Assembly: GCA_025544715.1 (NCBI GenBank)
Contig: GCA_025544715.1_4109.3
Reading direction: 5' to 3' (one strand)
Source of the DNA: Escherichia coli
GTDB taxonomy: Bacteria > Pseudomonadota > Gammaproteobacteria > Enterobacterales > Enterobacteriaceae
DNA length: 64,000 nucleotides
Each line of letters begins with the position of its first letter. Position 1 is the first letter of the stretch. The translations under genes were made by a program, and so were the position numbers. Below the pieces are notes generated by a model. The model ran no database searches and was not told the DNA's origin. It was given only the letters and a program-made list of their open reading frames with translations. Of the stretch, positions 931 to 60,545 are shown in pieces.

Positions 931-1407
931 TTATTTTAGAATATATAAGTGTTTTTCTGCATTGACCAGACGGTGATCAATGATTTCTTTGATAACGTTC
1001 CAGTTACCGCCGCCCAAATCGGCTCCAATTTTCGGGAAATGTACATGAACATCTCGATCAACTTTACAAAAATAATTTAGATGTTTGAACACATCGTCGA
1101 TTGCATCATAACTGACATATTTAGCACCGTCATTACCGTACATTTTTTGGGTAATACAGTTTGCAATAATCAAATTATCGTTAATTGCTGAATATGCAAT
1201 TTGTCCAATTCTAAGAAATCCCATTTCCTTTTCATATGCTTTATAATCATCATATGCCATTGGATAACGATTTCTTAGTTCTTTTGCAAAACCTGAACCC
1301 ATTTTACCCTGTGCGTTACAACCATGAGCAATTATATGTATTGCTGTTTTATCATCTGTTACAGTACTGAATAATTCAAACAGATTACCTCGGTGTTCAT
1401 GAATCAT
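931..1407 (-). CDS. macro-domain protein (ADP-ribose binding/processing)
   Basis: IIAHGCNAQGKMGSGFA and IGADLGGGNW resemble the two glycine-rich ADP-ribose-binding loops of macro domains. Confidence 0.55.
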   Translation of the reverse strand: MIHEHRGNLFELFSTVTDDKTAIHIIAHGCNAQGKMGSGFAKELRNRYPMAYDDYKAYEKEMGFLRIGQIAYSAINDNLIIANCITQKMYGNDGAKYVSYDAIDDVFKHLNYFCKVDRDVHVHFPKIGADLGGGNWNVIKEIIDHRLVNAEKHLYILK

Positions 1408-2237: not shown

Positions 2238-2639
2238 TTATTTCCTTCTATTTCTTTGAAAAGCTTTAACAGCTTTAATAATACTGTTACACATTCGTTC
2301 AGTCAAATACTTTTGACATTCTCGTACATCAATGTACATGAACTTATCCAATTCTGGATGACTCTTACCATATCTATTAGTGTAAGTACTTTTACAAACT
2401 AATTCATCTGGTATTGGTTTGTCTTTGGCAGTATAAAAGAAAAGTACTAACCTTTTTCCCTTTCTATAGGATACATCACCAAGAAACAGAAGATCATCTT
2501 CATCGATTTCGTATCCTGTCTCTTCGAAACATTCACGTACAGCAGCTTCTTTGAAAGTTTCATTACCCTCAGCTTTCCCTTTAGGTAAATCCCAATGATT
2601 CTGTCCGTGTTGTATGTCCGATAAGTATCTGACCATCAC
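2238..2639 (-). CDS. Nudix hydrolase (short N-terminus)
   Basis: Nudix box GKAEGNETFKEAAVRECFEETGYEI; track start is GTG with ATG one codon downstream; only about 14 residues precede the box. Confidence 0.65.
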   Translation of the reverse strand: MMVRYLSDIQHGQNHWDLPKGKAEGNETFKEAAVRECFEETGYEIDEDDLLFLGDVSYRKGKRLVLFFYTAKDKPIPDELVCKSTYTNRYGKSHPELDKFMYIDVRECQKYLTERMCNSIIKAVKAFQRNRRK

Positions 2640-2746: not shown

Positions 2747-3859
2747 TTAGAACATTTGTTTGATTGCTTCGTAACGAAGTTCACAAACAAAATCACGAAT
2801 TTCTGACGTTTCAAGTTCACCATCTTTAACCATTTGCTGAATATCAGGTAATTCAACATCAGTATAACGATCATAAACTTTAATAATTAGATCTTCAAGT
2901 TCTAAATCAATTTCTTTTCGCAAAATGAAGTATTCCAAAACTTTATAAAGGAATTCTTCACCTCCGTTATTTTTAATATTCATATCCAATAAAATATTAC
3001 CCATTTCAATTGGGGTCTTTTTACGGAATGTTTTGATATCATCACGGAAACGTTTGATATAATTACTAAATTTAACATACTTAACTGGAACTTTAATAGC
3101 ACCGTTAAGTACTGAATCATTATTTACTTCTTCATTTTCTAGAAGAATAGACCACAGAAAATATGGTTTATATACATCAGTACAGTTATCTGAAATATAA
3201 TCAATAAGGTCTAAATTCTTTTTGGTCAAAGATGTATTAAACACCTTTTCGTAATAACCAAATTTACTTAGCGTCTTAAGGAACTTTGAAGGCTTTTCTT
3301 CAGAAAATGCTTTTTCGAATTCCACAAAAACACGGTCAGGAACAAGATGATTTAGCTCACCACTATTGACCATTCCAATAGCGAGTTCCTCAGTGCTTTC
3401 ATGAATAGTAAAGTCTGAATAACGAGTAGCAAATCGAGCAAGACGTAACACGCGTAATGGATCTTCTTTAAAATGGTCAGAAACATGACGTAGTACCTTG
3501 TTCTTGATATCAGCTTTACCACCGTATGGATCGATGTGAATTTGTAGTACTGGATCATACGCAATTGCATTAATTGTAAGGTCACGGCGATACAAATCTT
3601 GTTCTAGTGTTACGCCTTTTGTATCCACTTCAAAGCCACCATATCCAGTACCAGTTTTACGCTCAGTACGGGCTAATGCGTGTTCATTACCTTCTGGACT
3701 TAGATATACTGGGAAATCCTTACCTACTTGCTTATAGCCAATACTTTGCAAGTACTTAAGATCAGATTCGGATGCACCAACAATGACATAATCTTTGTCT
3801 TTTGCACGAAGACCCATTAAACGGTCACGGACGTAACCGCCAACCAAATACTTTTTCAT
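2747..3859 (-). CDS. cca: CCA-adding tRNA nucleotidyltransferase
   Basis: N-terminal GGYVRDRLMG...DKDYVIVG head-domain motif of class II tRNA nucleotidyltransferases; 370 aa. Confidence 0.75.
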   Translation of the reverse strand: MKKYLVGGYVRDRLMGLRAKDKDYVIVGASESDLKYLQSIGYKQVGKDFPVYLSPEGNEHALARTERKTGTGYGGFEVDTKGVTLEQDLYRRDLTINAIAYDPVLQIHIDPYGGKADIKNKVLRHVSDHFKEDPLRVLRLARFATRYSDFTIHESTEELAIGMVNSGELNHLVPDRVFVEFEKAFSEEKPSKFLKTLSKFGYYEKVFNTSLTKKNLDLIDYISDNCTDVYKPYFLWSILLENEEVNNDSVLNGAIKVPVKYVKFSNYIKRFRDDIKTFRKKTPIEMGNILLDMNIKNNGGEEFLYKVLEYFILRKEIDLELEDLIIKVYDRYTDVELPDIQQMVKDGELETSEIRDFVCELRYEAIKQMF

Positions 3860-4417: not shown

Positions 4418-4820
4418 TCACATAATCCTCATAAAGTTCGTATACCCTCATTATACTCTGATATGTATCAAAGTCAATACCAAAGGTATCCTCAATGAAC
4501 TGATATTGCAAAAACTCTTCCTCTGTGGCAGCAATAGGAAGAGTCCCGTTTCGTTGTTCTGGGGATTGAACATCCTCAATATACATCAACACTATACCTT
4601 CATCCAGATTTATATCTATCATAAAAACATCTTCACTATAAAATATGTTATATGTACGGATGAAGAGATTTCCTGTTCTATCATAACTTGACACGTGTGT
4701 TTCATAATACATTTTATCTAAACTAAAGAACAAACCTGTACTATCTGGCTTTTTAGTATTTTTTAATTTAATTTCGATAGCATCAATAATAGGTTTAATA
4801 TCAAACTTTTTCATAGACAA
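4404..4820 (-). CDS. hypothetical protein, tandem paralog B (138 aa)
   Basis: Paralog of 3995..4417. Confidence 0.5.
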   Translation of the reverse strand: MSMKKFDIKPIIDAIEIKLKNTKKPDSTGLFFSLDKMYYETHVSSYDRTGNLFIRTYNIFYSEDVFMIDINLDEGIVLMYIEDVQSPEQRNGTLPIAATEEEFLQYQFIEDTFGIDFDTYQSIMRVYELYEDYVIGRY

Positions 4821-4996
4821 ATCACATACTTATTACTATGTGGGTCGTAACAATATGAATCATTTACCTTAATACCAGGCTTAAGTTCAATAGTTGTTCC
4901 TGTTTCAGTACTGGATTCCGCATCACAGTAAATCATCACACCAACTCCTGCGAGTAATGCTACGATACATACAATTACACCAATGGTATATTCCAT
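4811..4996 (-). CDS. small membrane protein (61 aa)
   Basis: Single hydrophobic helix IGVIVCIVALLAGVGVMIY. Confidence 0.4.
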   Translation of the reverse strand: MEYTIGVIVCIVALLAGVGVMIYCDAESSTETGTTIELKPGIKVNDSYCYDPHSNKYVICL

Positions 4997-5009
4997 TTCA
5001 ATTCCTCGG

Positions 5010-5405
5010 TTATAAAAAGTAATTATACATTTTATTGTACAATATAAAAAGATCTTTCACATTATCATAAGTAATATCAGATACATCATGAATTAATGAT
5101 AACTGAAAAAATGAAGCTTCGTCTATTTCTGCTGGAATTATAACATCACCATCGTCTTCGTCCATTTTATTAGTGTAGTATTTTATGTGATCTACATTCA
5201 ACTCAATAGAGAACGCAATGTTGGTTTTTGTATAATCTTCAATTAATCCAATATATTGAGATTTTTCATTAATAAAAAATCCAATCCCAATACAACGGTT
5301 ATCTGTATATGGATAGTACCATCTATTAATAACTAGGTGTTCAGGTAAGTCCATATCATGTGTTGATATTAGAGATTTTACAATTTCCATCCAGGAATAA
5401 TTCAT
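5010..5405 (-). CDS. hypothetical protein (131 aa)
   Basis: ORF; GGAG RBS after upstream terminator. Confidence 0.45.
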   Translation of the reverse strand: MNYSWMEIVKSLISTHDMDLPEHLVINRWYYPYTDNRCIGIGFFINEKSQYIGLIEDYTKTNIAFSIELNVDHIKYYTNKMDEDDGDVIIPAEIDEASFFQLSLIHDVSDITYDNVKDLFILYNKMYNYFL

Positions 5406-5420
5406 AATTAAAACTCCATA

Positions 5421-5447
5421 AGAAAAGGGACAGAATTAATCTGTCCC
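5421..5447 (-). terminator. hairpin terminator after hpf-like gene
   Basis: gggacag/ctgtccc stem, 7-nt loop, short T-run on minus strand. Confidence 0.4.
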
Positions 5448-5458
5448 TTTAGTCTATA

Positions 5459-5791
5459 TTACTCTTCGTTTTCTGTCAAATCATCAAGAACTGGGTGTTC
5501 TGGATGGTTTCGGCGGTGTAATTTAATGCTTTTGTCTTTACTGAATACAGTTTCCATCTTATCAAAAGATTCAACAATTGCTTTATACAAATCAGCATCA
5601 TCAGCAGTGACTGATTTACTACCAGCAGTTAAAGTTACAGCATATTGAGTTTTATGCTCTTTCTTAACATGAACACCAATGTCTAGTACTGAAGAAGTAC
5701 GGTACTTATCCAGACTTTTTGCTTCATTGTAAATAGCATCTTGGATTGCTGGAGTGATATCAACGTTGCCTTGAATATTTAGATTTAGCAT
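5459..5791 (-). CDS. hpf: ribosome hibernation factor (HPF/RaiA family) homolog
   Basis: MLNLNIQGNVDITPAIQDAI and DLYKAIVESFDKME resemble the N-terminus and helix of YfiA/HPF; strong AAGGAAGGTGA RBS. Confidence 0.6.
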   Translation of the reverse strand: MLNLNIQGNVDITPAIQDAIYNEAKSLDKYRTSSVLDIGVHVKKEHKTQYAVTLTAGSKSVTADDADLYKAIVESFDKMETVFSKDKSIKLHRRNHPEHPVLDDLTENEE

Positions 5792-5807
5792 ATTTCACCT
5801 TCCTTTT

Positions 5808-6734
5808 TTAGAGTGAACTTAACAACAAATCTGCTCGGTTTGTAACTTGACGATACCATAAGGAATTCATGATTTCTTTTTTAAATTTCTTAGGGTTATC
5901 ATTTTTTACGCTTTTCCAAAGCTTATTAAACGTAGCCAATTTATCGACACCCATTGTATAGGACATTTCAAAAAGAATACGTTGTTGTTCTTTGGTCAGA
6001 TTTACTGCTTCTTTTTTCTGCATCAACAATAAAAAGTCATTATATGTTCTTTTCATATCTTGCATTAAAAGTTTATTGGCTTGAGCTTTGGTAATACCGT
6101 TTCTGTACTTAATCGCATCAGATTCTTTTCTACCCAAATAATGCCCATAACCTATTGTATAATTACCTTTCATGTCCTTGTAGGGATGAAATTTAGAATT
6201 GTGGAAAGGAACTCCGACTTTCCCACCAAGTAAACGGCGTTTGTTCTTGGACTGAAATTCAATTGAACCTTCAGCTTCTTTGATGTGATTGACAATTTCT
6301 GGATCATTATAATCAAACAGTACAGTCACATCTGGTAACAATACGTTCTTCAAATCCTCTTTTGTTGGGATAAAGATACCCTGAGAAGTATGAAGAGTAG
6401 CATTTAAATTGATATTTTTCAACAAAATAACATACTCTTCAAGTTGTACATTTTTAGGTTTAAACTTTTTAGCAATAGAATAATAACTATCACCAGGTTG
6501 AACCGTATAATGCTTCTCGCCGCGTGGAACATCCTTTGATATTTCTACCTTTGGTAATTCCTGCTTTTGAATTTGCGTAACTTGTGGTTTTAAATTGTGT
6601 ACCTGACTTTCGTCCGATGATGATACACGATCATTTTGAGAAAAACCATAAAATCCAATCGCAGCGACAAGTACTGTGCAAACTAGAACACCATAAGTAG
6701 TCTTAGTTTTCAGTGCTTTTTTCGCTTGTTTCAA
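5808..6734 (-). CDS. endolysin: signal-anchor + LysM + T4-type lysozyme
   Basis: N-terminal TM, LysM-like HYTVQPGDSYYSIAKKF, C-terminal GNYTIGYGHYL and WYRQVTNRA matching T4 lysozyme; start re-assigned to TTG with GGAGG RBS (track start 6767 is also TTG). Confidence 0.65.
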   Translation of the reverse strand: MKQAKKALKTKTTYGVLVCTVLVAAIGFYGFSQNDRVSSSDESQVHNLKPQVTQIQKQELPKVEISKDVPRGEKHYTVQPGDSYYSIAKKFKPKNVQLEEYVILLKNINLNATLHTSQGIFIPTKEDLKNVLLPDVTVLFDYNDPEIVNHIKEAEGSIEFQSKNKRRLLGGKVGVPFHNSKFHPYKDMKGNYTIGYGHYLGRKESDAIKYRNGITKAQANKLLMQDMKRTYNDFLLLMQKKEAVNLTKEQQRILFEMSYTMGVDKLATFNKLWKSVKNDNPKKFKKEIMNSLWYRQVTNRADLLLSSL

Positions 6735-6902
6735 AACGCCTCCTTTGTTGATTGTTAAGATGGGCAATCACAAAGATGGCAAAGAGGCCATTTGCAAAAG
6801 CCTCATCGGACTTTCTACAGTACAAAAACGTTCTTTTCAAATGTTTAAGTAGTATAGCATATTTTTATTTTATTACAAGACATATTTACTGTAAAAACCA
6901 CA

Positions 6903-7313
6903 TTAATCGTAGTAGGTTCTACCTACAGTTATGTGATATTTAAAGTACTTGGTTGGTAGTCCTAGTTCGTTTCTAATGTGTGTGATGAAATCATCTTCAA
7001 ATTCAATGATAAAGAATGAACCTGGATTCTTTTTATCTTTTACTATCTCAATAGAAGGATTGAACTTTATCTTTACTTTCATTCCATCGTATTTTTTCCA
7101 GAACTCTTCATGTGGTGGTACTTCACCACGCACTATACTAACATGTGCTCCCCATTGAGGATCTTTAACATCAATATGTAAATCAGTTCTGATGAAGTAC
7201 TGGTAGTATCTAACCAACTGTAATGGAAGTTGTAGTACTAACCAGAAGTCCTTCTTCTTTTTCATAGTGCCACGATCTGGATCATACACCAGAGTTCCTT
7301 CCATTTCAATCAT
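6903..7313 (-). CDS. 2H-phosphoesterase-fold protein (LigT/Acb1-like)
   Basis: Two H-x-[ST]-x motifs, HVSI at His57 and HITV at His127, about 70 residues apart; 136 aa. Confidence 0.45.
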   Translation of the reverse strand: MIEMEGTLVYDPDRGTMKKKKDFWLVLQLPLQLVRYYQYFIRTDLHIDVKDPQWGAHVSIVRGEVPPHEEFWKKYDGMKVKIKFNPSIEIVKDKKNPGSFFIIEFEDDFITHIRNELGLPTKYFKYHITVGRTYYD

Positions 7314-7320
7314 ATGTTAC

Positions 7321-7524
7321 CTATAAAATTACATATATGTTTTTATTTTCAATACGAACATATGTTTCCAAAACATCTTTCGGAATTTTATTACTTGTTT
7401 TGAACCATGTAGTATTCTCTACTAAAACAAAAGTTTCACCTTCAGTTTCACCAAATGTACTTAGTGCATAAATGAAGTAATTGGGTGATGCACTACAATA
7501 TATATCAGCATTAATTTCAATCAT
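7321..7524 (-). CDS. hypothetical protein (67 aa)
   Basis: ORF, operon context. Confidence 0.4.
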   Translation of the reverse strand: MIEINADIYCSASPNYFIYALSTFGETEGETFVLVENTTWFKTSNKIPKDVLETYVRIENKNIYVIL

Positions 7525-8434: not shown

Positions 8435-8883
8435 GTTCTAACTCCTTTCAATAATACAATAGGAAAATACTGTGTATCTGTATCAGAAATACTATTACAG
8501 TACTCAATAATTTCTTGATGGAGTGTGTTTATATAAATGCTAGGATATGGAATTGGTGTTTGTATTAGTCCAGAACTATAAACACAATCAGTTCTTTGAC
8601 AATCAATATAGTGTGTTGTCGGTATACCTTTACCACGTTCCTCAACTACAATTGAGTACGTGTCAGCAATAAAAATGAACGCATTGTTAATTGATACATA
8701 TTGGAGGGAATACACATCATCATGAACTTCAATCAAAGGACCATCAAAATTCATCAATACCGAACGGCGATATCCTAACACATCACTCATTGCATCGAAC
8801 TGTTCCTGTGATGAAAGATAACAAAAACACGTATCACGACATACGTCAATAAAACGCTTAAATGTTTCTGTTTCTATAAGCAT
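8431..8883 (-). CDS. hypothetical protein (150 aa)
   Basis: Start moved to internal ATG with AAGGAA RBS downstream of a hairpin/T-run; track start 8928. Confidence 0.45.
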   Translation of the reverse strand: MLIETETFKRFIDVCRDTCFCYLSSQEQFDAMSDVLGYRRSVLMNFDGPLIEVHDDVYSLQYVSINNAFIFIADTYSIVVEERGKGIPTTHYIDCQRTDCVYSSGLIQTPIPYPSIYINTLHQEIIEYCNSISDTDTQYFPIVLLKGVRT

Positions 8884-8894
8884 ATAATTTTCCT

Positions 8895-8919
8895 TAAAAA
8901 AGACCCCACATAGTGAGGT
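8895..8919 (-). terminator. imperfect hairpin terminator
   Basis: gacc...ggtc stem followed by T6 on minus strand. Confidence 0.3.
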
Positions 8920-8928
8920 CAAATACAT

Positions 8929-9153
8929 TTAATCGTTATCATCATCCAATGCGTCACGGTAAACATAATAAACATGTGCACCTAGCAGAGCAATAAGTAC
9001 AATAAAGACTAACCAGAATGGTACAAAATGCAGTACTAGAGAAAACGCCAGTACTGTAATAACCATTACAACTGAACTGAAAATAAGACTGACTGCTTTT
9101 TCAAATCCAGATAGTAAATTTTTAAAGATTTTTTTCATAAATGAATCAACCAT
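8929..9153 (-). CDS. small two-TM membrane protein with acidic C-terminus (holin-like topology)
   Basis: Two hydrophobic helices then RDALDDDND tail; topology only, not adjacent to the lysis genes. Confidence 0.4.
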   Translation of the reverse strand: MVDSFMKKIFKNLLSGFEKAVSLIFSSVVMVITVLAFSLVLHFVPFWLVFIVLIALLGAHVYYVYRDALDDDND

Positions 9154-9496
9154 TTTTAATCCTCAAGAAAGTATGCTTACATTTTAGTTTATTACCATAG
9201 AATGAAATAGGAACATTAAACATTTCAATCTTATCTTCTTTCAACAAACGTAGAATATCAGGATCGTTTTTTGTTTGAATACAATGAAGACCATTAACCT
9301 GAATTTCTAAACCTTTCTTTAGATATTCATAAATTTTTTGACGACGCATCCCGCCATAACTATCATTATGCACCACATCACGTAGTTCTTTATATTCTTG
9401 CTTCAATGCTCGGTCTACAAGTGTTCCATCTTTCTTCCTGATCTCTGCAATACATTTATATTGATTTGAACCTCTAAGAGCCATGCTGTACCTCAT
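9146..9496 (-). CDS. hypothetical protein (116 aa)
   Basis: ORF. Confidence 0.45.
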   Translation of the reverse strand: MRYSMALRGSNQYKCIAEIRKKDGTLVDRALKQEYKELRDVVHNDSYGGMRRQKIYEYLKKGLEIQVNGLHCIQTKNDPDILRLLKEDKIEMFNVPISFYGNKLKCKHTFLRIKNG

Positions 9497-19631: not shown

Positions 19632-20864
19632 TTACTTATACCATTGCATTTCTCTGATATCAATGATAATTTTTGATGCTAATTTAATGTTTGGTTTTTT
19701 GGGAAGTACTGATTTCTTATATAGAACATCACGAATGTATTGTACTTTATCATCGAAATATTCTAATACTTCTTCATACTTCCACTTACCATTACGAATA
19801 TCCATCAACATTTGTGCATCAGGTCGTTTAACTTGAATAATTCCACTCTGTAATGCTTCTTCTGCACTATTCAAAAGTCTAATTGTGTGCATAGCATGTT
19901 TACAATCGTATCCGTGTTGTGATTCTAAAATAGCACGTTTGGCATTACGATTTTCTTTCCATTTATGATAACTTTTCCTATTCTCACTATTCTCCTGATA
20001 TTCTTTTTCGTTAAATTTTACAATTAGTTCTGGTTTGGTTTTCAACTCTTCAGTACTACGTTCTTTAGAAAAATAACGCAATGAACCATCATGGTTAATA
20101 GTGCTTTCATTAGGATTCTTAACAATCGCAAAAATGTTTTCTCCGTAATGAATTAGTTCATAACCATTATTAAAATTCAATAAATTGAAATCACGATCAA
20201 GAATTTTTTCAGTAGTGTAGTTATGTACTAATCTTACGAAATGATATTGCTTTAATGGATTTTTCGAAACTAACTGCAATGATGTATCACGCATATATTT
20301 TTCAAAATCAATCTTTTTAGCATTAAATGGATGTAAGTTGGATGTATCTAAACGTTCAACAAGATACTGTGGGAATGAATCATACATCCACGCAAGAACC
20401 TCATCGACAGGGTGTTCTTCTAAAATCTCATTTAATCGTTTTTCAGCAATACGCTCTTTATCCATCCAACCGTGATGATTTGTCATACGCTTAATCTGAT
20501 TATATGCATATCCAGTGTATGAAAATGCAATCTTGGAACTAAGAAGTTTTTGGTTAAATGAACGAAGATAGTCATAAATTTCAGTACTTTCAACAATGTG
20601 TTCAGGTTCAACCCAAAGTGATTCAAGAATATTAGGGTTAGCTTCAGTGTATAATTTTAAATACTGATTCAACTCATAGAATTTAGTATCTTCTTCGCTT
20701 TTATCAGCTACCTCTTTGACCTTATAGAAGGGTGTAAGAATAAATTCTTTATTAGCAAGAAAAATACCACGATAATCAGTATCACTTTCAGGTGTACTGG
20801 TTCCGTAGGCTTGTGACCCAGCCAAGTGTTTCACTATTGTTTGTTCAATATATTGGTTATTCAT
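19632..20864 (-). CDS. Pol-beta-superfamily nucleotidyltransferase domain protein (410 aa)
   Basis: N-terminal hLAGSQAYGTSTPESDTDYRGIF matches the GS-x9-13-DxD nucleotidyltransferase signature. Confidence 0.5.
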   Translation of the reverse strand: MNNQYIEQTIVKHLAGSQAYGTSTPESDTDYRGIFLANKEFILTPFYKVKEVADKSEEDTKFYELNQYLKLYTEANPNILESLWVEPEHIVESTEIYDYLRSFNQKLLSSKIAFSYTGYAYNQIKRMTNHHGWMDKERIAEKRLNEILEEHPVDEVLAWMYDSFPQYLVERLDTSNLHPFNAKKIDFEKYMRDTSLQLVSKNPLKQYHFVRLVHNYTTEKILDRDFNLLNFNNGYELIHYGENIFAIVKNPNESTINHDGSLRYFSKERSTEELKTKPELIVKFNEKEYQENSENRKSYHKWKENRNAKRAILESQHGYDCKHAMHTIRLLNSAEEALQSGIIQVKRPDAQMLMDIRNGKWKYEEVLEYFDDKVQYIRDVLYKKSVLPKKPNIKLASKIIIDIREMQWYK

Positions 20865-39049: not shown

Positions 39050-39601
39050 CTATAGATAACTAATTAGTAAGTTTTCTTTTTGAACCAGATACTCCAATTC
39101 TTGTTTTGCTGTACCGATGAAGTTCTGTGTCATAAGATTATTATATCCCGCTTCTCGATTTTGTCCCTTAGAATAACGAGAAATATGACATAAATTTACA
39201 CCAGCAACTTCAGCACTCGCATGTTTAGCATTAGTGTATCCATCTCTAATGTGTTTCAACTCGTCATAGCTTACTTCATAGCTAAAACTATGACTGTTTG
39301 CACCTGGGTAAATTTCAAAAGTTTTGAGTGGTCGGAGATGGGAAACAAAAATATTGTAATCCATTTCTTCTTGAACTTCACGACGCAATGCATCTTCTAA
39401 TGAGATATCAGTACTTTCTACGGTTCCACCACATCCACCAAGAAGACCATCCCATCGTAATTGTAGTAAAACTAAATTTACTTCTGGTATATCATTCAAC
39501 TCATAGTTTTTGTAAGGGTTGCATTTTCTTGCAAAGAAATAACAAAATACAAAATTTGCACGTGAGCCATATTCACCAAAGGGAACTTCTTTAACACTCA
39601 T
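39050..39601 (-). CDS. Nudix hydrolase (183 aa)
   Basis: Nudix box GGCGGTVESTDISLEDALRREVQEEM; ATGA overlap with Sir2 gene. Confidence 0.55.
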   Translation of the reverse strand: MSVKEVPFGEYGSRANFVFCYFFARKCNPYKNYELNDIPEVNLVLLQLRWDGLLGGCGGTVESTDISLEDALRREVQEEMDYNIFVSHLRPLKTFEIYPGANSHSFSYEVSYDELKHIRDGYTNAKHASAEVAGVNLCHISRYSKGQNREAGYNNLMTQNFIGTAKQELEYLVQKENLLISYL

Positions 39602-40356
39602 TTCATACGTTCCTTAATTATAGTCTCTAGATGTGGTATTGCTTTGGTTGCTGGCTTGATAACTTTTTCATTAAACAAAAAATCATTATCATTTTTACGA
39701 ATGTTAACATTAACACTATAACATGGCAATGCTGCTGCTAATCTCGACCATACCAGTACTGTATCGCTACTACCAATTACAATAACTGTATCATTTTCAT
39801 TAAGAGATTTCAACACATTATTTCGTTCTTCGTAAATTGGTAAGCGAATACCATCAACATAACGATGATATTCTCCAATCATTACTACATTTGGTTTAGC
39901 AAAAACATCATGCTTTGGTATGTATGGTTCGTATCCGCAGTTAATAACATTATAATCATCGGAATTAATACTATAATTTTCAATAACTTCGCACAAGTTT
40001 CCATGAAGTTTAAGCTCATGACCACCAATACGAGTATAAAGATCATCCATGTTAGAAGTCATATGAAGGAAGCAATCACCATATTGATCTTCTAACGATT
40101 TTATAAAATAATGCATTGCATTGGGTTCGCATTGTCCCAATTTTACACGTAATGTATTATAGAAGGAATGAACAACGTGATATTTTGTAGTTAAACTAGC
40201 AATGTTACATACATCATTAATTTTAAATGTATCCCACAAACCATCATCAAATCGAAAAGGTTCCATACCACTTTCAACGGAAAGTCCTGCACCTGATATA
40301 ATCAGTAATCGTTTTTTACCTTCATTGCTTATAAATTTTTCTGATATCATATTCAA
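39598..40356 (-). CDS. Sir2-family (sirtuin-fold) NAD-binding protein
   Basis: ISGAGLSVESGMEPFR (GAGIS..SG.P.FR) and SNMDDLYTRIGGHELKLHG (NxDxL...LHG catalytic His); no zinc-ribbon CxxC pairs seen. Confidence 0.6.
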   Translation of the reverse strand: MNMISEKFISNEGKKRLLIISGAGLSVESGMEPFRFDDGLWDTFKINDVCNIASLTTKYHVVHSFYNTLRVKLGQCEPNAMHYFIKSLEDQYGDCFLHMTSNMDDLYTRIGGHELKLHGNLCEVIENYSINSDDYNVINCGYEPYIPKHDVFAKPNVVMIGEYHRYVDGIRLPIYEERNNVLKSLNENDTVIVIGSSDTVLVWSRLAAALPCYSVNVNIRKNDNDFLFNEKVIKPATKAIPHLETIIKERMK

Positions 40357-41496: not shown

Positions 41497-42105
41497 TTAT
41501 TGGTTTACTGATCCATATCGGATTAGTTCAGTTTTTGTCAAGATAACAACATCTTCACCACGAGAACGGCTAACTTTATATAGAACGTCTGGTGGAATTC
41601 CATTTGCAGAATATAGTGTAAATAGAAAACCTACTTTAGTTGCCATTTCTTCAGTAAAAGTTGATAGCTGCCTAACTGATACAAAAGAATTATCACCGTC
41701 TTTAACATTACTTTTAATAGAAATGTTATGAAGTCCCAGTACTGAGCGATTTATCATGTATCGCTTTTCAAAAGCTACACTAAAGAATACCACAGTACAT
41801 GCTGAGTTGCAATACCTAGAAACAATTAAATTTATACCATTGTCTCTAACGAAGTTTGCCATTTTAATTCCAGCATCAAAATCACCACCTGGTGATGTGA
41901 TTGTAATGGTATCATAGTGTTCTTTATCATACAACTCCATCATACGCTTGAGTGATCCATCTGTAATATCTGAGATGAAATATACATTACGTGTTTCTGG
42001 ATTGTACTTTATCACATTTTTACGTTCAACACCAGCACTGGCTGGAAAATTTATCAACATCAGAAGCATTACTGCTTGTACTACCTCAAGCCATAGTCTT
42101 TTCAT
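41497..42105 (-). CDS. secreted ClpP/S49-fold serine-peptidase-like protein
   Basis: Signal peptide MKRLWLEVVQAVMLLMLINFPASAG; ITSPGGDFDAGIKMANF resembles the ClpP/SppA SPGG serine motif; AAGGA RBS. Confidence 0.45.
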   Translation of the reverse strand: MKRLWLEVVQAVMLLMLINFPASAGVERKNVIKYNPETRNVYFISDITDGSLKRMMELYDKEHYDTITITSPGGDFDAGIKMANFVRDNGINLIVSRYCNSACTVVFFSVAFEKRYMINRSVLGLHNISIKSNVKDGDNSFVSVRQLSTFTEEMATKVGFLFTLYSANGIPPDVLYKVSRSRGEDVVILTKTELIRYGSVNQ

Positions 42106-42133
42106 AACAAATCCTTAATTTTGGTTAGGAAGA

Positions 42134-42141
42134 TATAAATA
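42134..42141 (+). promoter_or_regulatory. T4-type late promoter TATAAATA (plus strand)
   Basis: Exact TATAAATA about 147 nt upstream of the only plus-strand gene pair. Confidence 0.35.
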
Positions 42142-42287
42142 ATATAGTACTTAAACACTTAAGTCAAACTTTTTCTGTACTTAACTCAAATTTCCCTCAT
42201 CAGATAATCCCCTTAGTACAATCACTGTGAAGATTCTATCACAAACCCATACCAAATGTAAAGCTTTTTTTATAAGGAGTGCCCTTC

Positions 42288-44213
42288 ATGGGAAAACCAA
42301 TTGCAGGACAAGACCAATTTCCATTCACTATAGGTGGATATTTAGTTGATGGTGCAAACATAAAAGGTACAACATATGTAAAATCGTTGTACATCTACAA
42401 ACAGCGTTCCTCTGATTTGTATGATTTAATGGATTCAAATGGAACAATATATCGTTTTATTCGTATTGTTGGATATGGTCAAGATGGTAACAGATTAAAT
42501 TATTTTACACCAGCAGAAGAAATTGTACCAAATCTGGCGACCAATACATTTTTTATAAAAGTTCAAGATGCTGAAAGAAATATATTTTCATTTGTTAGAT
42601 TGTACCAATTAAATAAAATAATAACATTCGATGGTGATTATATTTTTAGAAAAATAGATAAAGATCGTTATCTAAGTGGTGTGTTAATTCAACCATCATT
42701 AACTACATTACAAGTTGGTAAAACCAGTTCACTGCATTGTGTATTCTACCCTAATGATTACTATGATACTGATGGAACTTGGTACATAAACGACCATTCT
42801 GATATAAATCCAGAAATACCTAGTAAGTATGCTAAAATCATAGAATATAATAAAAATGAAGTATCTATTGAAGGAACATCGGTGGGTATGTCAATACTTT
42901 CATTTGTTCCTAAAAATAATAAATCCATAATTTCACATTCTCTTATTAACATTGTTAATGAAAATGTAGATATAGAATACATGGTTGCCGAAAGAAGTTC
43001 TCCATTTTTTAATCATTATATTGGCAATGAATGGACTATTCAAATAGTCACATATCCGTATGACGCGACTATACAATACCCTCTTGAAATCGTAATCGAT
43101 GCGGAAGTAGATCCTTATATGAAAATTGCCACTACCGAGTTAGTTGGAGTCTCTGAAAATAATAAAATATATACATTTAAATCAACACTTGAGCCAGATT
43201 TAGAATATTATATAGATTATTATCCACAAATCACCTTCACTATGAATGAACCTTACAAATTTAGTGCATTGTTTGAAAATAAAATTTGTTTGTCTGGTTG
43301 GGAAAGATATTGTGAAAAAATTACCAGTCCTGGAAAGTTATTTTCTATTGATGAATATGTACGTCCAAACACGACTAAAACATTAAAATATTGGTTAATG
43401 AATGATTATGACCAACATATGTATCCAATACGTTCAACTGATGATGAAATTGCCACAATTGATGTAACAACTGGTATATTGAGAACTTACGATAAAAGAG
43501 GAACAGTATCTTTCTATACAAATTATACTGATATAACTACTGGGGCCATTAGTCAAGATGAATATTTAGTTGGGAAACTAACCGTTACAGACGATGTGTA
43601 CGATTTAATCGAGGTAGAACCATCAAATATACAATATATGTTCCCAAATCAATCACAACAATTCACGTTAACTGGTTATAGAGAAGGTTATCCAAATACA
43701 TCTTTTAATGTTAATGTAAGTATGTTGAACAATTATGCAACTTCTTCAAACAATATCGTCACTATTAACGAAAATACATCTAATAACTCTAGATTTAAGA
43801 TAGTATCAGATTTCAATGGTAATTATAAAAACTTTAGTAGTATATATTCTAATCAAACACCATCTATTATAGTAAAAACAAATCCAAATGATTTAACTCC
43901 AATACAAAGTATTGATGTTTCTGAAAATGAAATTTTATCTATAAGAATGGCTGAAGAAAATGAAATAGATGATTATAAAGTTAGTTTTTATCCAAAACCA
44001 AATTATTGTGTTAATTATGAACTTGAAATTGTATCATATGATAATACTATAATTGAAATATATGATAAAGAAAATGCATTAAAAAACGGGCTAAATTATT
44101 ATGGTAATATTATGTTATACATAACACCAAAAAGTCCTGGAAGTACCGAGATTGTTGTTAGATCTGTTCATTACCCAGATGTACAACAATCTGTAAAAGT
44201 AGTTGTTTATTAA
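42288..44213 (+). CDS. virion-surface-type protein with bacterial Ig-like (Big_2-like) repeats
   Basis: ATG with AAGGAG RBS (track gives GTG at 42279); segments such as IQPSLTTLQVGKTSSLHCVFYPND and the C-terminal block fit Big_2-like patterns; N-terminal 110 aa duplicated in next gene. Confidence 0.5.
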   Translation: MGKPIAGQDQFPFTIGGYLVDGANIKGTTYVKSLYIYKQRSSDLYDLMDSNGTIYRFIRIVGYGQDGNRLNYFTPAEEIVPNLATNTFFIKVQDAERNIFSFVRLYQLNKIITFDGDYIFRKIDKDRYLSGVLIQPSLTTLQVGKTSSLHCVFYPNDYYDTDGTWYINDHSDINPEIPSKYAKIIEYNKNEVSIEGTSVGMSILSFVPKNNKSIISHSLINIVNENVDIEYMVAERSSPFFNHYIGNEWTIQIVTYPYDATIQYPLEIVIDAEVDPYMKIATTELVGVSENNKIYTFKSTLEPDLEYYIDYYPQITFTMNEPYKFSALFENKICLSGWERYCEKITSPGKLFSIDEYVRPNTTKTLKYWLMNDYDQHMYPIRSTDDEIATIDVTTGILRTYDKRGTVSFYTNYTDITTGAISQDEYLVGKLTVTDDVYDLIEVEPSNIQYMFPNQSQQFTLTGYREGYPNTSFNVNVSMLNNYATSSNNIVTINENTSNNSRFKIVSDFNGNYKNFSSIYSNQTPSIIVKTNPNDLTPIQSIDVSENEILSIRMAEENEIDDYKVSFYPKPNYCVNYELEIVSYDNTIIEIYDKENALKNGLNYYGNIMLYITPKSPGSTEIVVRSVHYPDVQQSVKVVVY

Positions 44214-44229
44214 TAAGAGGAAATAAAAT

Positions 44230-44607
44230 ATGAAAGCTATAGCAGCACAAGGTAAATTACCATTCAATATCGGCGGCTTTTGTGTAACCGCAGCTAATAT
44301 AAACGGTGAATTGAAATATAACTTGAACATCTTTAATCAACGTTCTAGTTGTGTTTACGATCTTATCGACACTGATTTTAATGTTTATCGTTTTGTAACT
44401 ATAACAAGTTTTGATAAAGATAAAATCAGATTAGACGCATCTAAAACTGCACTAGAGATTGCACCAACTTTAGCAAAAAATACTTTTTGTATTAAGATTG
44501 ATGATAGTGCATTTGCCGAATCATTCCAGTTTCATAAAATTAAATTGAGTACTGGAGAAATGAAATATCACCCTTGGGATTTGTATTATTGTAACATCCC
44601 TGGTTAA
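44230..44607 (+). CDS. standalone paralog of the N-terminal domain of 42288..44213 (125 aa)
   Basis: Shares G.LPF.IGG..V..ANI.G...Y, QRSS.vYDLiD, YRFV.I, NTFcIK; AAGAGGAAA RBS. Confidence 0.5.
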   Translation: MKAIAAQGKLPFNIGGFCVTAANINGELKYNLNIFNQRSSCVYDLIDTDFNVYRFVTITSFDKDKIRLDASKTALEIAPTLAKNTFCIKIDDSAFAESFQFHKIKLSTGEMKYHPWDLYYCNIPG

Positions 44608-51085: not shown

Positions 51086-52288
51086 TTATAGATAATACTT
51101 TCCAATATAAAGTGGATTACTAATTGATAGTTGAACGTGACACGGCTTATCTTGGTAGTAACGAGAACTTGATGTTTTGCGTTCATTTGGTGGGAAGAAT
51201 GGTGAACGATAACCGTTCCATGTACTAAATGATGTGTGCTCATTAATATCAACATCCATTGACATAATTCCATTATCATCAATTTGAACTGGGTATGCAC
51301 TAAAGCGTTCAAATTTATCATTATAATGAATATTATAATCCCCGCTACGTCCATAATAACTACGTGTTGTATTATTACTTACACCAAAAAATACGCGATA
51401 AGATTGTTCATTATCTTTAGTCATAAATGGTACGTTCTCGTTGAAACGTCCATTATTCATAAGATCATCAACATTTATTTCTTCATATTTAATTTTTAGG
51501 TCTTTTGCTTTAAATGATTTATTGTGTACCAGTACTGGAATGTTAGATTCACCTAATGGGTTATGTCTGTTTGTTCTATAGCTTTGCCAAAATTCATTAG
51601 CAAGTTTAATTTCTTCATCTGCCGTAGTCTTCTTATTCAAGAGTGCACGAGGTTCCAGATTGTAATTATCCAAACGTTGATTCAATGCATAAGTTCCACG
51701 AGTACTGTTATAAAGTAAATGATAAACAGAACTTTTGTCGGGGTATGCAAATTCTTTAGTTTTCTTTATACAAATTGCATGTACTTTACCGCAGTAATAG
51801 TAATCTTCTTTGAGATACGTGAAGCCATCACCAACTTTAAGACCTGCTACAGTTTCTTTTTGTTGTTCTTTTTTATTTTCTTTTTCAACTAACTTAGCAA
51901 ATGTTTTTGTTTTACCATTAATTAATTCTAAGTTATTGTTGAAAAACATTGGGTCTACAAAAACACCTTTGATTATATCGTTATTGATAATTAAATCATT
52001 CATGTTTTTGGCACTAATCATAAATTCAAATCCTTCTGGGTGACGGATTGTGAAATATGTTTCTCGTGCATGAATTGTTAATTTATCAACTACACAAAAT
52101 CCAGTAGTTGGAACGTTGTCAATATATAACGATGGAAGATTGTTCTTCTTTGCCCAGTACTCTGCTCTCTCTTTCTTTGTTTCAAACGCTTTTGTATGTG
52201 ATTTTGTTGCATCGATAATAAAACCATCAACTTGGTTGTGGTTTACATAGGAACGTGCAACAAATAACTTCTCTGGAAAATCCATCAA
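51086..52288 (-). CDS. hypothetical protein (400 aa)
   Basis: Long ORF; no motif recognised. Confidence 0.5.
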   Translation of the reverse strand: MMDFPEKLFVARSYVNHNQVDGFIIDATKSHTKAFETKKERAEYWAKKNNLPSLYIDNVPTTGFCVVDKLTIHARETYFTIRHPEGFEFMISAKNMNDLIINNDIIKGVFVDPMFFNNNLELINGKTKTFAKLVEKENKKEQQKETVAGLKVGDGFTYLKEDYYYCGKVHAICIKKTKEFAYPDKSSVYHLLYNSTRGTYALNQRLDNYNLEPRALLNKKTTADEEIKLANEFWQSYRTNRHNPLGESNIPVLVHNKSFKAKDLKIKYEEINVDDLMNNGRFNENVPFMTKDNEQSYRVFFGVSNNTTRSYYGRSGDYNIHYNDKFERFSAYPVQIDDNGIMSMDVDINEHTSFSTWNGYRSPFFPPNERKTSSSRYYQDKPCHVQLSISNPLYIGKYYL

Positions 52289-52704
52289 ATAGTCCTCATT
52301 GTACTGATTGCTTTTAGTGTGTCAAACAATGCACCATATTTTACTTGCATTAGTTGATCACCCGCAGGAAGATTCATACGCATAACAGCCATGTCTTCAA
52401 TCATTTCAGACGTACACAGTACTGCTACACAGGTAATAGCATCATTTAATCCAGCTTCATTGAATTTGGCAAAAGGAACTTTTCCCTGTTTGCTAAGGTT
52501 GTTATAATAAGAATTTAATTTATCATGTCCACCAGCATTTAGTACTACAATAGTTTCGTGTTCATAGTACCATTCATCAATAATAGTACTGAAAGCAGTA
52601 CCTTCATATTCTTTAATTAGTTTAACACCAGCATGGAATGCTTGAATACCAGCTTGGACACCTTGACAGTACATATTAGTTAAGCAATACAATTTCATTT
52701 CCAT
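52285..52704 (-). CDS. hypothetical protein (139 aa)
   Basis: ORF. Confidence 0.45.
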   Translation of the reverse strand: MEMKLYCLTNMYCQGVQAGIQAFHAGVKLIKEYEGTAFSTIIDEWYYEHETIVVLNAGGHDKLNSYYNNLSKQGKVPFAKFNEAGLNDAITCVAVLCTSEMIEDMAVMRMNLPAGDQLMQVKYGALFDTLKAISTMRTI

Positions 52705-57373: not shown

Positions 57374-58306
57374 TTAGAAATTTCCTTCTGCAACTTGAAA
57401 AACTTTCAAGCCAAGTAGTTTACGCCACATGAATACAACTTGATCGCGGTCATCATAAACCTTTTTAACATCGTAATGATCAACCACATTTTTCATGTAC
57501 AGGTCGAATTTTACAACATCATCGGGACGTTTATCATCGATGTCTCGCATAAACAATGCATCGTAAGGAACACCCCAATTCTTAAGCCACTGTTCGGTAT
57601 CAGCACGACACCCTTCAGTACGCCCACTCATGACGATAATCTTGCGTTTATGAAAAACTGCTTCAGCGATAATAGACAAAATAACTTCTTCATCTGGTGT
57701 ATCCTGAAGAACAGTACTTTCATCGTAAGGATTACGACCCCATTTATGAGCAAGAGTACCGTCAATATCAACGATAACAGCAGCTTCTCGTGAATTACCA
57801 TAGTAACCAATGTGCATGGCCTTACTATAATAGTACGTATCTGCCATAGTGTCAATGATATTATCTTGTACAGAACGCTCACGCATGAGGTTACGTTTCT
57901 TACAAAGTTTTACGAACTCTTTAATCTTAAAGAAAACATGAACATCTGCACCACGATCTTCATTCGGTACAAAATCTTCGTAGAAGTTCTTTTCTTTGTA
58001 GTCGTATTCATTATCTTTAGCCCAACGTTTCCATTCATCACGGAAATGTTGTTTAAGGTTCGTATCGGACACAATGATGTTCCAACCATTCTCTGCTGCT
58101 GAATTTGCTGCACTGAACTGCATTTTAGTTACGTACTGCTCATTAGCGTCGTTGAATTTGTATGCATCATGTGACCCAGCCATAGATTCACGAATATCAT
58201 CACGGTTGATGTTGATAGTCTTTGATTTGGCATTTTTAATTTCTTGAACTGCCCATGTAGTTTTACCACAACCAGGCAACCCAACTGTTAGTGTAATAGT
58301 TGGCAT
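57374..58306 (-). CDS. pseT: polynucleotide 5'-kinase/3'-phosphatase
   Basis: Walker A GLPGCGKTT, phosphatase DxDGT motif IVDIDGTLA; overall similarity to T4 Pnk. Confidence 0.85.
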   Translation of the reverse strand: MPTITLTVGLPGCGKTTWAVQEIKNAKSKTININRDDIRESMAGSHDAYKFNDANEQYVTKMQFSAANSAAENGWNIIVSDTNLKQHFRDEWKRWAKDNEYDYKEKNFYEDFVPNEDRGADVHVFFKIKEFVKLCKKRNLMRERSVQDNIIDTMADTYYYSKAMHIGYYGNSREAAVIVDIDGTLAHKWGRNPYDESTVLQDTPDEEVILSIIAEAVFHKRKIIVMSGRTEGCRADTEQWLKNWGVPYDALFMRDIDDKRPDDVVKFDLYMKNVVDHYDVKKVYDDRDQVVFMWRKLLGLKVFQVAEGNF

Positions 58307-59402: not shown

Positions 59403-60545
59403 CTAAAAATCCTTTAGTACAATTTTCATGTATTTTATAAGAGTCTCTTTGTAATCAACTTTCTTATTGTTATACATTGCAAAGGCCAAGCCCTGACGAT
59501 TCAGTTCATTAGTTAAACACTCCTGAACCTTCATTGCGAATTCCTTTCGCTCCAAGTGCTTGTGTTCCTTGACGAAGCTTTCTACTTCATCTTGTAATGC
59601 ATTATAGCACGAAAATACCAATTGTTCCATTCTTAATATCTTTTGCATAGCATATTCATCAGTACTGAACAATTGTTTTAAATCATCACTTGAACCATTT
59701 AATACGGCTTCATATAAATGAGAATCAATAATAATACTATCTTTTGTAAGATGTAATGAACTGTACCAGTCAGTCTTTATTTTACACATTGTTCCATTAT
59801 TTAGGATGCACACAAAACCCTCAATATCAAGCATTTTATGAACTTCCTCCACGCTTTCACGGAAGGTATTTCGTACCGGAAAAGTGTGATGAATATCTTT
59901 TCCTGTCATATTAGTACTGTACTGTGCAAGACATGGAAACTTATCACGTAGTGCTTTACCACATAGCAACTCACCACTCACACGATGTCGAACGTTCAGT
60001 ACAAACAGTTGTTCTACCTGATATGGTAATACAATTCGGTACTCTGGGCTTGTATACTCCATATTAACTGTGTAACCTAAACGTTCCGCTTCGTCGATGT
60101 ACTGATACAAATTCTGGTTCTCGTTAATAAGTCGAGTACTGTTAATCGCATGGTCAGAATACAATGCAGTATGTGATTTACAACGAATCTCACCATCATT
60201 ATCACGATAAGTACTGATGATCGAACCATCCAACTTAGGCATAACTACCGCAATGTCATCGCATGTGGTGTTAGCAGGGAACATTGTAGCAGGATTCTCG
60301 TAAGCATTAAAGAACTTTTTCATTGTACGTGCTGCACAACGTATCATGTCACCTTCTTCATCAATTTCCCACATAGAGCCACGGGTTTCCAACGCATTTG
60401 GTTGCATGAAATCAGTGTATGATGCTAGACGATAACTGAATACACGATACGTACCACCAGCAGGACTTTTATGATCCACATAAAAGAACGCATCGTTTGT
60501 ATTACATAAGTGCATTAAATCTTCATATATTTGCAAAAGGGTCAT
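59403..60545 (-). CDS. rnlA: RNA ligase 1
   Basis: Adenylation motif KLDGS and N-terminal similarity to T4 RnlA (GGTYRVFSY, ETRG, KFFN). Confidence 0.85.
   Translation of the reverse strand: MTLLQIYEDLMHLCNTNDAFFYVDHKSPAGGTYRVFSYRLASYTDFMQPNALETRGSMWEIDEEGDMIRCAARTMKKFFNAYENPATMFPANTTCDDIAVVMPKLDGSIISTYRDNDGEIRCKSHTALYSDHAINSTRLINENQNLYQYIDEAERLGYTVNMEYTSPEYRIVLPYQVEQLFVLNVRHRVSGELLCGKALRDKFPCLAQYSTNMTGKDIHHTFPVRNTFRESVEEVHKMLDIEGFVCILNNGTMCKIKTDWYSSLHLTKDSIIIDSHLYEAVLNGSSDDLKQLFSTDEYAMQKILRMEQLVFSCYNALQDEVESFVKEHKHLERKEFAMKVQECLTNELNRQGLAFAMYNNKKVDYKETLIKYMKIVLKDF

Follow-up and report, generated by a model that had tools for sequence, protein, structure and literature searches.

A 136-residue protein of an Asteriusvirus jumbo coliphage is predicted to be a minimal stand-alone 2H phosphoesterase with a possible role in RNA-end healing

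Introduction

What does a jumbo phage do with a 136-residue protein that carries two widely spaced histidine motifs and is labeled "hypothetical protein" in all GenBank records? We addressed this question for a gene within a 64,000-nucleotide stretch of DNA, hereafter the window, which derives from an Asteriusvirus (a 121Q/PBECO4/G17-like jumbo coliphage of ~350 kb). The G+C content of the window is 33%, and the 3.8 kb around the gene shares 97-98% identity with the phages SP27, 121Q, G17, Sharanji, and PBECO4 (~350 kb). A first-pass annotation had read the protein as a candidate 2H phosphoesterase that could either degrade cyclic oligonucleotide immune signals, in the manner of the phage nuclease Acb1, or act in phage RNA repair. 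Here, we examine its family, its predicted fold, and its genomic surroundings in this and other phages, and weigh the roles that these suggest.

The open reading frame contains two conserved histidine motifs

The ORF (6903..7313, minus strand) begins with an ATG codon, encodes a candidate stand-alone 2H phosphoesterase of 136 aa, and is the orthologue of 121Q gp531 and G17_00391. Its extent agrees with that given by the first-pass annotation, to which the minus-strand orientation can now be added. The start codon is located 7 nt past the stop of an upstream 67-aa ORF (7321-7524; junction at 7314-7323), and no obvious Shine-Dalgarno sequence was seen before it when the sequence was read by eye; this arrangement suggests translational coupling within a block of small ORFs.

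The pattern H-x-[ST]-x occurs exactly twice in the protein, once per half, at His57 and His127, which are 70 residues apart. Both motifs, noted earlier as lying about 70 residues apart, can be read directly from the sequence:

7134..7145, minus strand: predicted first catalytic motif, HVSI (His57 codon 7143-7145), on a predicted strand spanning residues 56-61
6924..6935, minus strand: predicted second catalytic motif, HITV (His127 codon 6933-6935), on a predicted strand spanning residues 125-131

Since at least two such motifs also arise in 4.4% of shuffles of the protein, the pair by itself is weak evidence. It rises above chance because both histidines and the accompanying serine or threonine are conserved across relatives. 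Among 129 representatives with 25-51% identity to the query, His57 and His127 are the sole invariant columns; position 59 is occupied by serine in 74% and threonine in 26%, position 129 by threonine in 98% and serine in 2%, and P12, W24, G63, W72, R114, and G118 are each more than 90% conserved. Residues H57, H127, T129, R62, G63, G131, and R132 are invariant in 20 homologues (34-96% identity). The protein ends 9 residues past His127, and the median tail in the family is 10 residues.

The gene is conserved in 77 GenBank phage records. RaK2-like carriers infect Klebsiella, Salmonella, Yersinia, Erwinia, Serratia, Cronobacter, and Pectobacterium; distant carriers comprise a 349-kb Vibrio phage, Bacillus phage G, Agrobacterium phage Atu_ph07, Ralstonia phage RsoM2USA, and a 595-kb uncultured phage. 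When 1.84 billion representatives were searched with a profile, ~1170 clusters (50% identity) reached E ≤ 1e-3, 577 of them E ≤ 1e-10, and most of the best 150 of these ~1170 representatives are stand-alone proteins of 130-170 aa. Retention in so many phage records and metagenome clusters indicates that this is a real coding gene. Locus searches with a profile of a 30-sequence subset identified 74 loci in IMG/VR, mostly on contigs of 100-600 kb, and three matches among 185,579 bacterial and archaeal species genomes, all on MAG contigs; it follows that the subfamily occurs almost exclusively in jumbo phages.

The protein is related to the 2H-SAK family and has a predicted 2H fold

The sole Pfam match of the window protein is to PF22547 (2H-SAK; E 1.6e-5), with a score of 25.6 bits that falls under the gathering cut-off of 27 bits and an alignment that covers residues 87-136 only. 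All 20 aligned homologues match PF22547 at E ≤ 0.01 (best 3.9e-10), a precomputed match to this family is recorded for 25 of 28 database homologues, including the 96%-identical P0001, and the UniRef name of the Yersinia phage orthologue already follows it. In PHROGs, the protein belongs to phrog_12204, annotated as function unknown. A sequence search of the PDB with the protein and a 20-homologue profile returned chance matches only (Piezo1 and an aminotransferase). The SAK name is said to originate from comparative genomics by Burroughs and Aravind, in which it stands for Swiss Army Knife RNA repair proteins. The window protein has in common with 2H-SAK, the only sequence family matched, the HxS/T...HxT tetrad and a gene context of RNA repair; it differs in being a single domain of 136 aa, rather than part of a multidomain kinase/HAD/ligase polypeptide.

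An AlphaFold2 model built from the 20-sequence alignment (pLDDT 89.5, pTM 0.81) has the topology beta-beta-alpha-beta(His57) / beta-beta-beta-alpha-beta(His127). The predicted fold is bilobed, pseudo-symmetric, and alpha+beta, with the HxT motifs on central strands, as is characteristic of the 2H superfamily. This confident model bears out the superfamily assignment on structural grounds; support from Foldseek was much weaker. No significant match was found in the PDB (best Usb1, E 0.096, TM 0.42), and an Acb1 ranked second in BFVD (E 4.3e-3). The nearest solved structure to the window protein is Acb1, not LigT. Relative to LigT/ThpR proteins (E. coli ThpR 4qak/5ldi, P. horikoshii 1vgj, and the D. 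radiodurans CPDase 5h7f), the window protein is ~40 residues shorter; Foldseek comparison with its model gave E 0.38 and TM 0.41-0.44, and the LigT Pfam families (LigT_PEase and 2_5_RNA_ligase2) were not matched at E ≤ 10. Viral 2',5'-phosphodiesterases (coronavirus ns2 and the rotavirus VP3 C-terminal domain) and Usb1 share 8-16% identity with the window protein and, unlike it, come from eukaryotic or eukaryote-virus lineages. The E. coli host is not known to have a 2'-5' oligoadenylate system.

There is strong support for a 2H fold whose HxS/HxT tetrad is intact and invariant. We conclude that the ORF appears to encode a genuine, if divergent and unusually small, 2H fold. The protein is very probably a minimal, stand-alone, metal-independent phosphoesterase of the 2H-SAK clade, in which His57/Ser59 and His127/Thr129 are predicted to form an acid-base pair on the central beta-strands of a pseudo-symmetric fold.

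The protein is distinct from the Acb1 family

Acb1 (T4 gp57B; PDB 7t27; PF23474) and the window protein both have an HxT/HxT tetrad in a compact 2H fold, predicted in the latter case. Membership of the window protein in the Acb1 family was nevertheless rejected by profile, hhalign, and C-terminal tail tests. At E ≤ 10, the protein does not match PF23474, whereas T4 Acb1 scores 2.7e-60 with the same library, and hhalign of the 2H family profile against T4 Acb1 gave a probability of 0.5%. The catalytic residues of Acb1 are H44/T46/H113/T115, and its C-terminal segment provides an adenine contact, E141, and lid residues 145-152 with W147 (PMC9117128). In Acb1, this part of the protein accounts for ~39 more residues; the window protein stops 9 residues after His127 and thus lacks an Acb1-type C-terminal lid. 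In addition, 56 residues precede the first histidine in the window protein compared to 43 in Acb1, and the gene neighborhoods of the two families differ. Of the earlier interpretation, placement in the 2H superfamily therefore stands, on the strength of PF22547, the invariant His and Ser/Thr residues, and the model; the Acb1-family label does not survive the profile and tail comparisons.

The Yersinia phage fHe-Yen9-04 encodes both a 2H orthologue (P0018, 140 aa) and a separate 148-aa protein named Acb1, which is 10% identical to the window protein. For the 98%-identical phage ECO103 4-12-1, the complete genome was searched: phmmer with T4 Acb1 (E ≤ 10) found nothing, the 2H-SAK profile recovered the orthologue of the window gene only, and none of ten further ORFs in which two HxS/T motifs are spaced 55-110 residues showed a 2H or Acb1 Pfam match. 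Likewise, a sampled tblastn search of T4 Acb1 against all phages returned no RaK2-like record among the matches sampled. Given that neither Acb1 nor a second 2H gene was found in ECO103 4-12-1, redundancy is no argument against an Acb1-like activity in the window phage.

The window also holds genes for RNA repair and ADP-ribose processing

The 2H gene lies in a block (8900 to 5450) that runs from five small uncharacterized ORFs, upstream, through the 2H gene to a lysozyme and a ribosome hibernation factor:

8902..8920, minus strand: terminator-like hairpin upstream of the block; the G17 annotation has a terminator at the equivalent place
5808..6767, minus strand: LysM and phage lysozyme gene, directly downstream of the 2H gene (Pfam Phage_lysozyme 2.1e-11, plus LysM)
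5459..5791, minus strand: ribosome hibernation factor of the S30AE/HPF/RaiA type, directly downstream of the lysozyme gene (Pfam Ribosomal_S30AE 3.3e-10)
5424..5450, no strand assigned: terminator-like hairpin closing the block; the G17 annotation has a terminator here

The 2H and lysozyme genes are separated by an AT-rich gap of 135 nt (6768-6902) with overlapping sigma-70-like promoter matches (6895-6867 and 6878-6851, minus strand), and the lysozyme may consequently be transcribed apart from the 2H gene. Operon logic with the lysozyme and hibernation factor was discarded as a clue to function, as this adjacency is found in the RaK2-like lineage only and the promoter-like gap intervenes.

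Beyond the block, a glutaredoxin gene and the following three genes are located downstream on the same strand:

2747..3859, minus strand: CCA-adding tRNA nucleotidyltransferase, 3 kb downstream (Pfam PolyA_pol 1.7e-18, plus PolyA_pol_RNAbd)
2238..2639, minus strand: Nudix hydrolase (Pfam NUDIX 1.1e-12)
931..1407, minus strand: Macro protein of the Poa1p (ADP-ribose 1''-phosphate phosphatase) type, 5.5 kb downstream

In a phmmer search of the PDB, the Macro protein matched 2fg1 (7.9e-16) and the yeast ADP-ribose 1''-phosphate phosphatase 6lfu (8.6e-7). Four further genes of RNA repair or translation are encoded elsewhere in the window:

19632..20864, minus strand: nucleotidyltransferase of the RlaP family (RNA repair pathway; Pfam RlaP 6.3e-16)
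52285-52704, minus strand: peptidyl-tRNA hydrolase of the PTH2 type (2.1e-5)
57374..58306, minus strand: T4-type PNKP (Pfam HAD_PNKP 7.6e-44, plus kinase AAA_33)
59403..60545, minus strand: RNA ligase of the T4 Rnl1 type (Pfam RNA_lig_T4_1 9.4e-16 and T4_Rnl1_C 6.6e-17)

With RlaP, PTH2, PNKP, Rnl1, and the CCA-adding enzyme, the 64-kb window is unusually dense in genes for tRNA and translation rescue. It contains no tRNA genes, and tblastn searches of it found no homologues of YqeY, TROVE, NADAR, or Acb1.

Two other loci in the window deserve mention. A SIR2 gene (Pfam 3.7e-20) and a Nudt16-like Nudix gene (U8 snoRNA-decapping-like, 1.3e-18) at 39050-40356 (minus strand) share an overlap of 4 nt. 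Together, these neighbors may constitute a module that processes NAD+/ADP-ribose or RNA ends, comparable to those treated in PMC9503650. At 42279-44213 (plus strand), a 644-aa ORF sits within an otherwise minus-strand block. Megablast of 42000-44500 gave coverage of 19-28% in each of 22 matching phage records, which indicates that ~1.9 kb is specific to the window isolate. The first ~165 aa of this ORF share 38-41% identity with a multi-copy RaK2-like 'structural / Ig-domain / major tail' protein, and for the C-terminal ~480 aa neither Pfam nor the PDB nor phage sequences gave a match. A virion fiber protein with a swapped, novel distal domain is one possibility.

Relatives in other phages neighbor genes for tRNA and RNA processing

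In RaK2, the order 2H, lysozyme, CCA-adding enzyme, NudE, Grx, and Tk.4/Macro is retained. The Vibrio phage has tRNA genes upstream of its 2H gene, and a CCA-adding enzyme and NADAR 4-5 kb downstream; in phage G, a Macro gene is located 2.7 kb downstream. In Atu_ph07, a free-standing YqeY gene (8842-9300 of locus L006/L089, annotated 'hypothetical') follows 398 bp downstream of the 2H gene, and a Macro gene is 4.9 kb upstream. A gene with Ro60/TROVE and vWA domains (4442-5908 of locus L007, also annotated 'hypothetical') lies 93 bp upstream of the 2H gene in RsoM2USA. NADAR is found 278-340 bp downstream in two metagenomic phages, an RNA ligase less than 1 kb away in two lineages, and RlaP less than 5 kb away in four other lineages. 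One protein, P0034 (335 aa, annotated 'hypothetical'), is a direct 2H-SAK-YqeY fusion, the only fusion recognized among the best 150 of the ~1170 representatives. YqeY serves as a tRNA affinity module in Deinococcus GlnRS (PMC1865053) and is related to the GatB tail (PMC1865053; PMC2811023); our literature search found no description of a recurrent 2H-YqeY link.

Two counts were used to compare neighborhoods more broadly. A Pfam scan covered 450 ORFs of at least 104 aa within 5 kb on either side of the 2H gene, at 40 loci made non-redundant at 70% 2H identity. It identified the following numbers of ORFs:

PolyA_pol (CCA-adding enzyme): 8
RNA_ligase PF09414: 6 (plus 3 PHA02142 OB domains)
NUDIX: 6
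YqeY: 3
TROVE / Ro60 vWA: 2
Macro: 2
PTH2: 2
Aminoacyl-tRNA synthetases: 2
ADP-ribosylglycohydrolase: 1
PARG: 1
NYN: 1

Homing endonucleases (GIY-YIG and HNH) were also present and represent background. The second count used profile searches of all 82 loci, within 8 kb on either side, grouped into 16 lineages at 50% identity:

CCA-adding enzyme: 19 of 82 loci, 4 of 16 lineages
Macro: 18 of 82 loci, 3 of 16 lineages
YqeY: 15 of 82 loci, 4 of 16 lineages
Rnl2-like ligase: 10 of 82 loci, 3 of 16 lineages
NADAR: 9 of 82 loci, 4 of 16 lineages
RlaP: 7 of 82 loci, 4 of 16 lineages

At least one gene for a CCA-adding enzyme, YqeY, RlaP, Rnl2-like ligase, Macro, NADAR, or TROVE was located within 8 kb in 9 of the 16 lineages and within ~1 kb in 5 of them. 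By a rough binomial estimate without a matched control, the 1-kb count corresponds, under most assumptions, to P values of ~1e-4 to 2e-2, with 0.08 in the least favorable case; the 8-kb count is only marginal, and loses significance for genomes of small size or with many such genes. In the largest lineage, the majority of loci have none of these RNA or ADP-ribose neighbor genes. Jumbo phages tend to cluster translation-related genes anyway.

Discussion

The window gene is a member of a catalogued but uncharacterized 2H family, and RNA-end healing emerges as its most likely function, in which we place about as much belief as doubt. Published comparative genomics, including work by Iyer, Aravind, and colleagues (PMC7824862), has assigned to jumbo-phage 2H enzymes the clearing of 2',3'-cyclic phosphates for RNA ligation (PMC7824862; PMC9503650). 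In line with this, the genomic context suggests, with roughly even confidence, that the substrate is the 2',3'-cyclic phosphate on cut tRNA or RNA and that the protein is an end-healing enzyme for tRNA/RNA repair. Metal-independent host nucleases that cut the anticodon or acceptor stem would leave such a phosphate; judging from the chemistry of the family, the 2H enzyme would attack the 2',3'-cyclic phosphodiester by metal-independent acid-base catalysis (PMC4201822; PMC9503650) and open it to a monoester. The phage PNKP phosphatase could then remove the monoester, and the healed end would be re-extended by the CCA-adding enzyme or the RlaP nucleotidyltransferase, or sealed by Rnl1. In relatives, an adjacent or fused YqeY-type tRNA-binding protein may supply affinity for tRNA.

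This role is supported in the window phage by the CCA-adding enzyme, Nudix, and Macro genes 3-5.5 kb downstream and by RlaP, PNKP, Rnl1, and PTH2 in the window, and more widely by the RNA-related neighbors in distant phages and the 2H-YqeY fusion. We infer that the CCA-adding enzyme and the Macro protein are pathway partners of the 2H enzyme. Counting against this role, the immediate neighbors are a lysozyme, a hibernation factor, and small ORFs, and the RNA repair genes lie 3-50 kb away. The nearest solved structure (Acb1 instead of LigT), the failure of Foldseek to find a significant PDB match, the scarcity of such neighbors in the largest lineage, and the uncontrolled enrichment estimate weigh in the same direction. 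Moreover, the phosphatase domain of T4-type PNKP can itself heal 2',3'-cyclic ends (PMC3592404), and for this reason a 2H enzyme with such a role may be redundant in the window phage.

The Macro and Nudix genes also fit a different substrate. The protein could be a small-molecule cyclic phosphodiesterase of an NAD+/ADP-ribose network, which would open ADP-ribose 1'',2''-cyclic phosphate (or 2',3'-cNMPs) to the 1''-phosphate, whereupon a Poa1p-type Macro protein would dephosphorylate the product and a Nudix enzyme cleave it; such a network might dispose of side products from 2'-phosphotransferase-type RNA repair, or eliminate signal molecules or toxins of the host. The order of 2H and Macro reactions is that of the known yeast Cpd1/Poa1 route (PMC9503650). 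A Poa1p-like Macro gene is found 5.5 kb downstream in the window phage and others 2.7-5 kb from the 2H gene in phage G and Atu_ph07; NADAR adjoins the 2H gene in two metagenomic phages and is 5 kb off in the Vibrio phage; Nudix neighbors are frequent, and ADP-ribosylglycohydrolase and PARG occur once each. However, no KptA/Tpt1 gene was recognized in a general survey of the window not directed at such genes, and a polynucleotide substrate is favored by the fusion to YqeY and by the neighboring genes for Ro60, the CCA-adding enzyme, and RNA ligase. We regard the small-molecule role as unlikely, albeit the strongest of the alternatives; it and RNA-end healing are not mutually exclusive.

Somewhat less probable still is an Acb1-like immune-evasion nuclease that would use the same HxT/HxT chemistry on the cGAMP or cAAA of CBASS or on the cA3-6 of type III CRISPR systems. 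The chemistry shared with Acb1 is offset by the failure to match PF23474 at E ≤ 10, the hhalign probability of 0.5%, and a tail without the E141 contact and W147 lid; fHe-Yen9-04 keeps a 2H orthologue alongside a separate Acb1, and no CBASS-related gene was recognized among the neighbors, which indicate tRNA/RNA. We also give little credence to two bolder proposals: that the mini-2H clade forms a second, Acb1-independent family of phage immune-evasion nucleases, or that together with YqeY it forms a novel pathway for healing tRNA 3' (CCA) ends. In the former case, the enzymes could destroy cyclic oligoadenylates, cGAMP-type CBASS signals, or the 2',3'-cyclic-phosphate RNA fragments and cNMPs that alert CARF/WYL sensors; in the latter, the pathway could be dedicated to countering acceptor-stem and anticodon nucleases. 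Finally, the motifs could be incidental and the protein no phosphoesterase at all, for example a structural or binding protein with a 2H-like fold, such as AKAP18. This is highly improbable, given that the two histidines are the only invariant residues and Ser/Thr is retained in 100% of the 129 relatives, the pattern predicted for a catalytic tetrad, and that homologues pass the Pfam threshold.

The discovery made here is modest, given that Pfam and UniProt already list the family and that earlier comparative genomics papers proposed RNA-end healing for jumbo-phage 2H enzymes. Its members nonetheless offer practical openings. At 136 aa, the window protein is among the smallest 2H enzymes, a size that makes it easy to express and assay, and the recurrent YqeY partner or fusion provides a testable handle on the function of free-standing YqeY proteins. 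If RNA-end healing by the 2H protein holds true, the RNA repair capacity of 121Q/RaK2-like jumbo phages would exceed the T4 pair of PNKP and Rnl1: a cyclic-phosphate opener would be added, along with CCA-adding, RlaP nucleotidyltransferase, and ADP-ribose-processing enzymes. Such a capacity would bear on how these phages escape tRNA-cleaving defenses such as PrrC, RloC, PARIS, and retrons.
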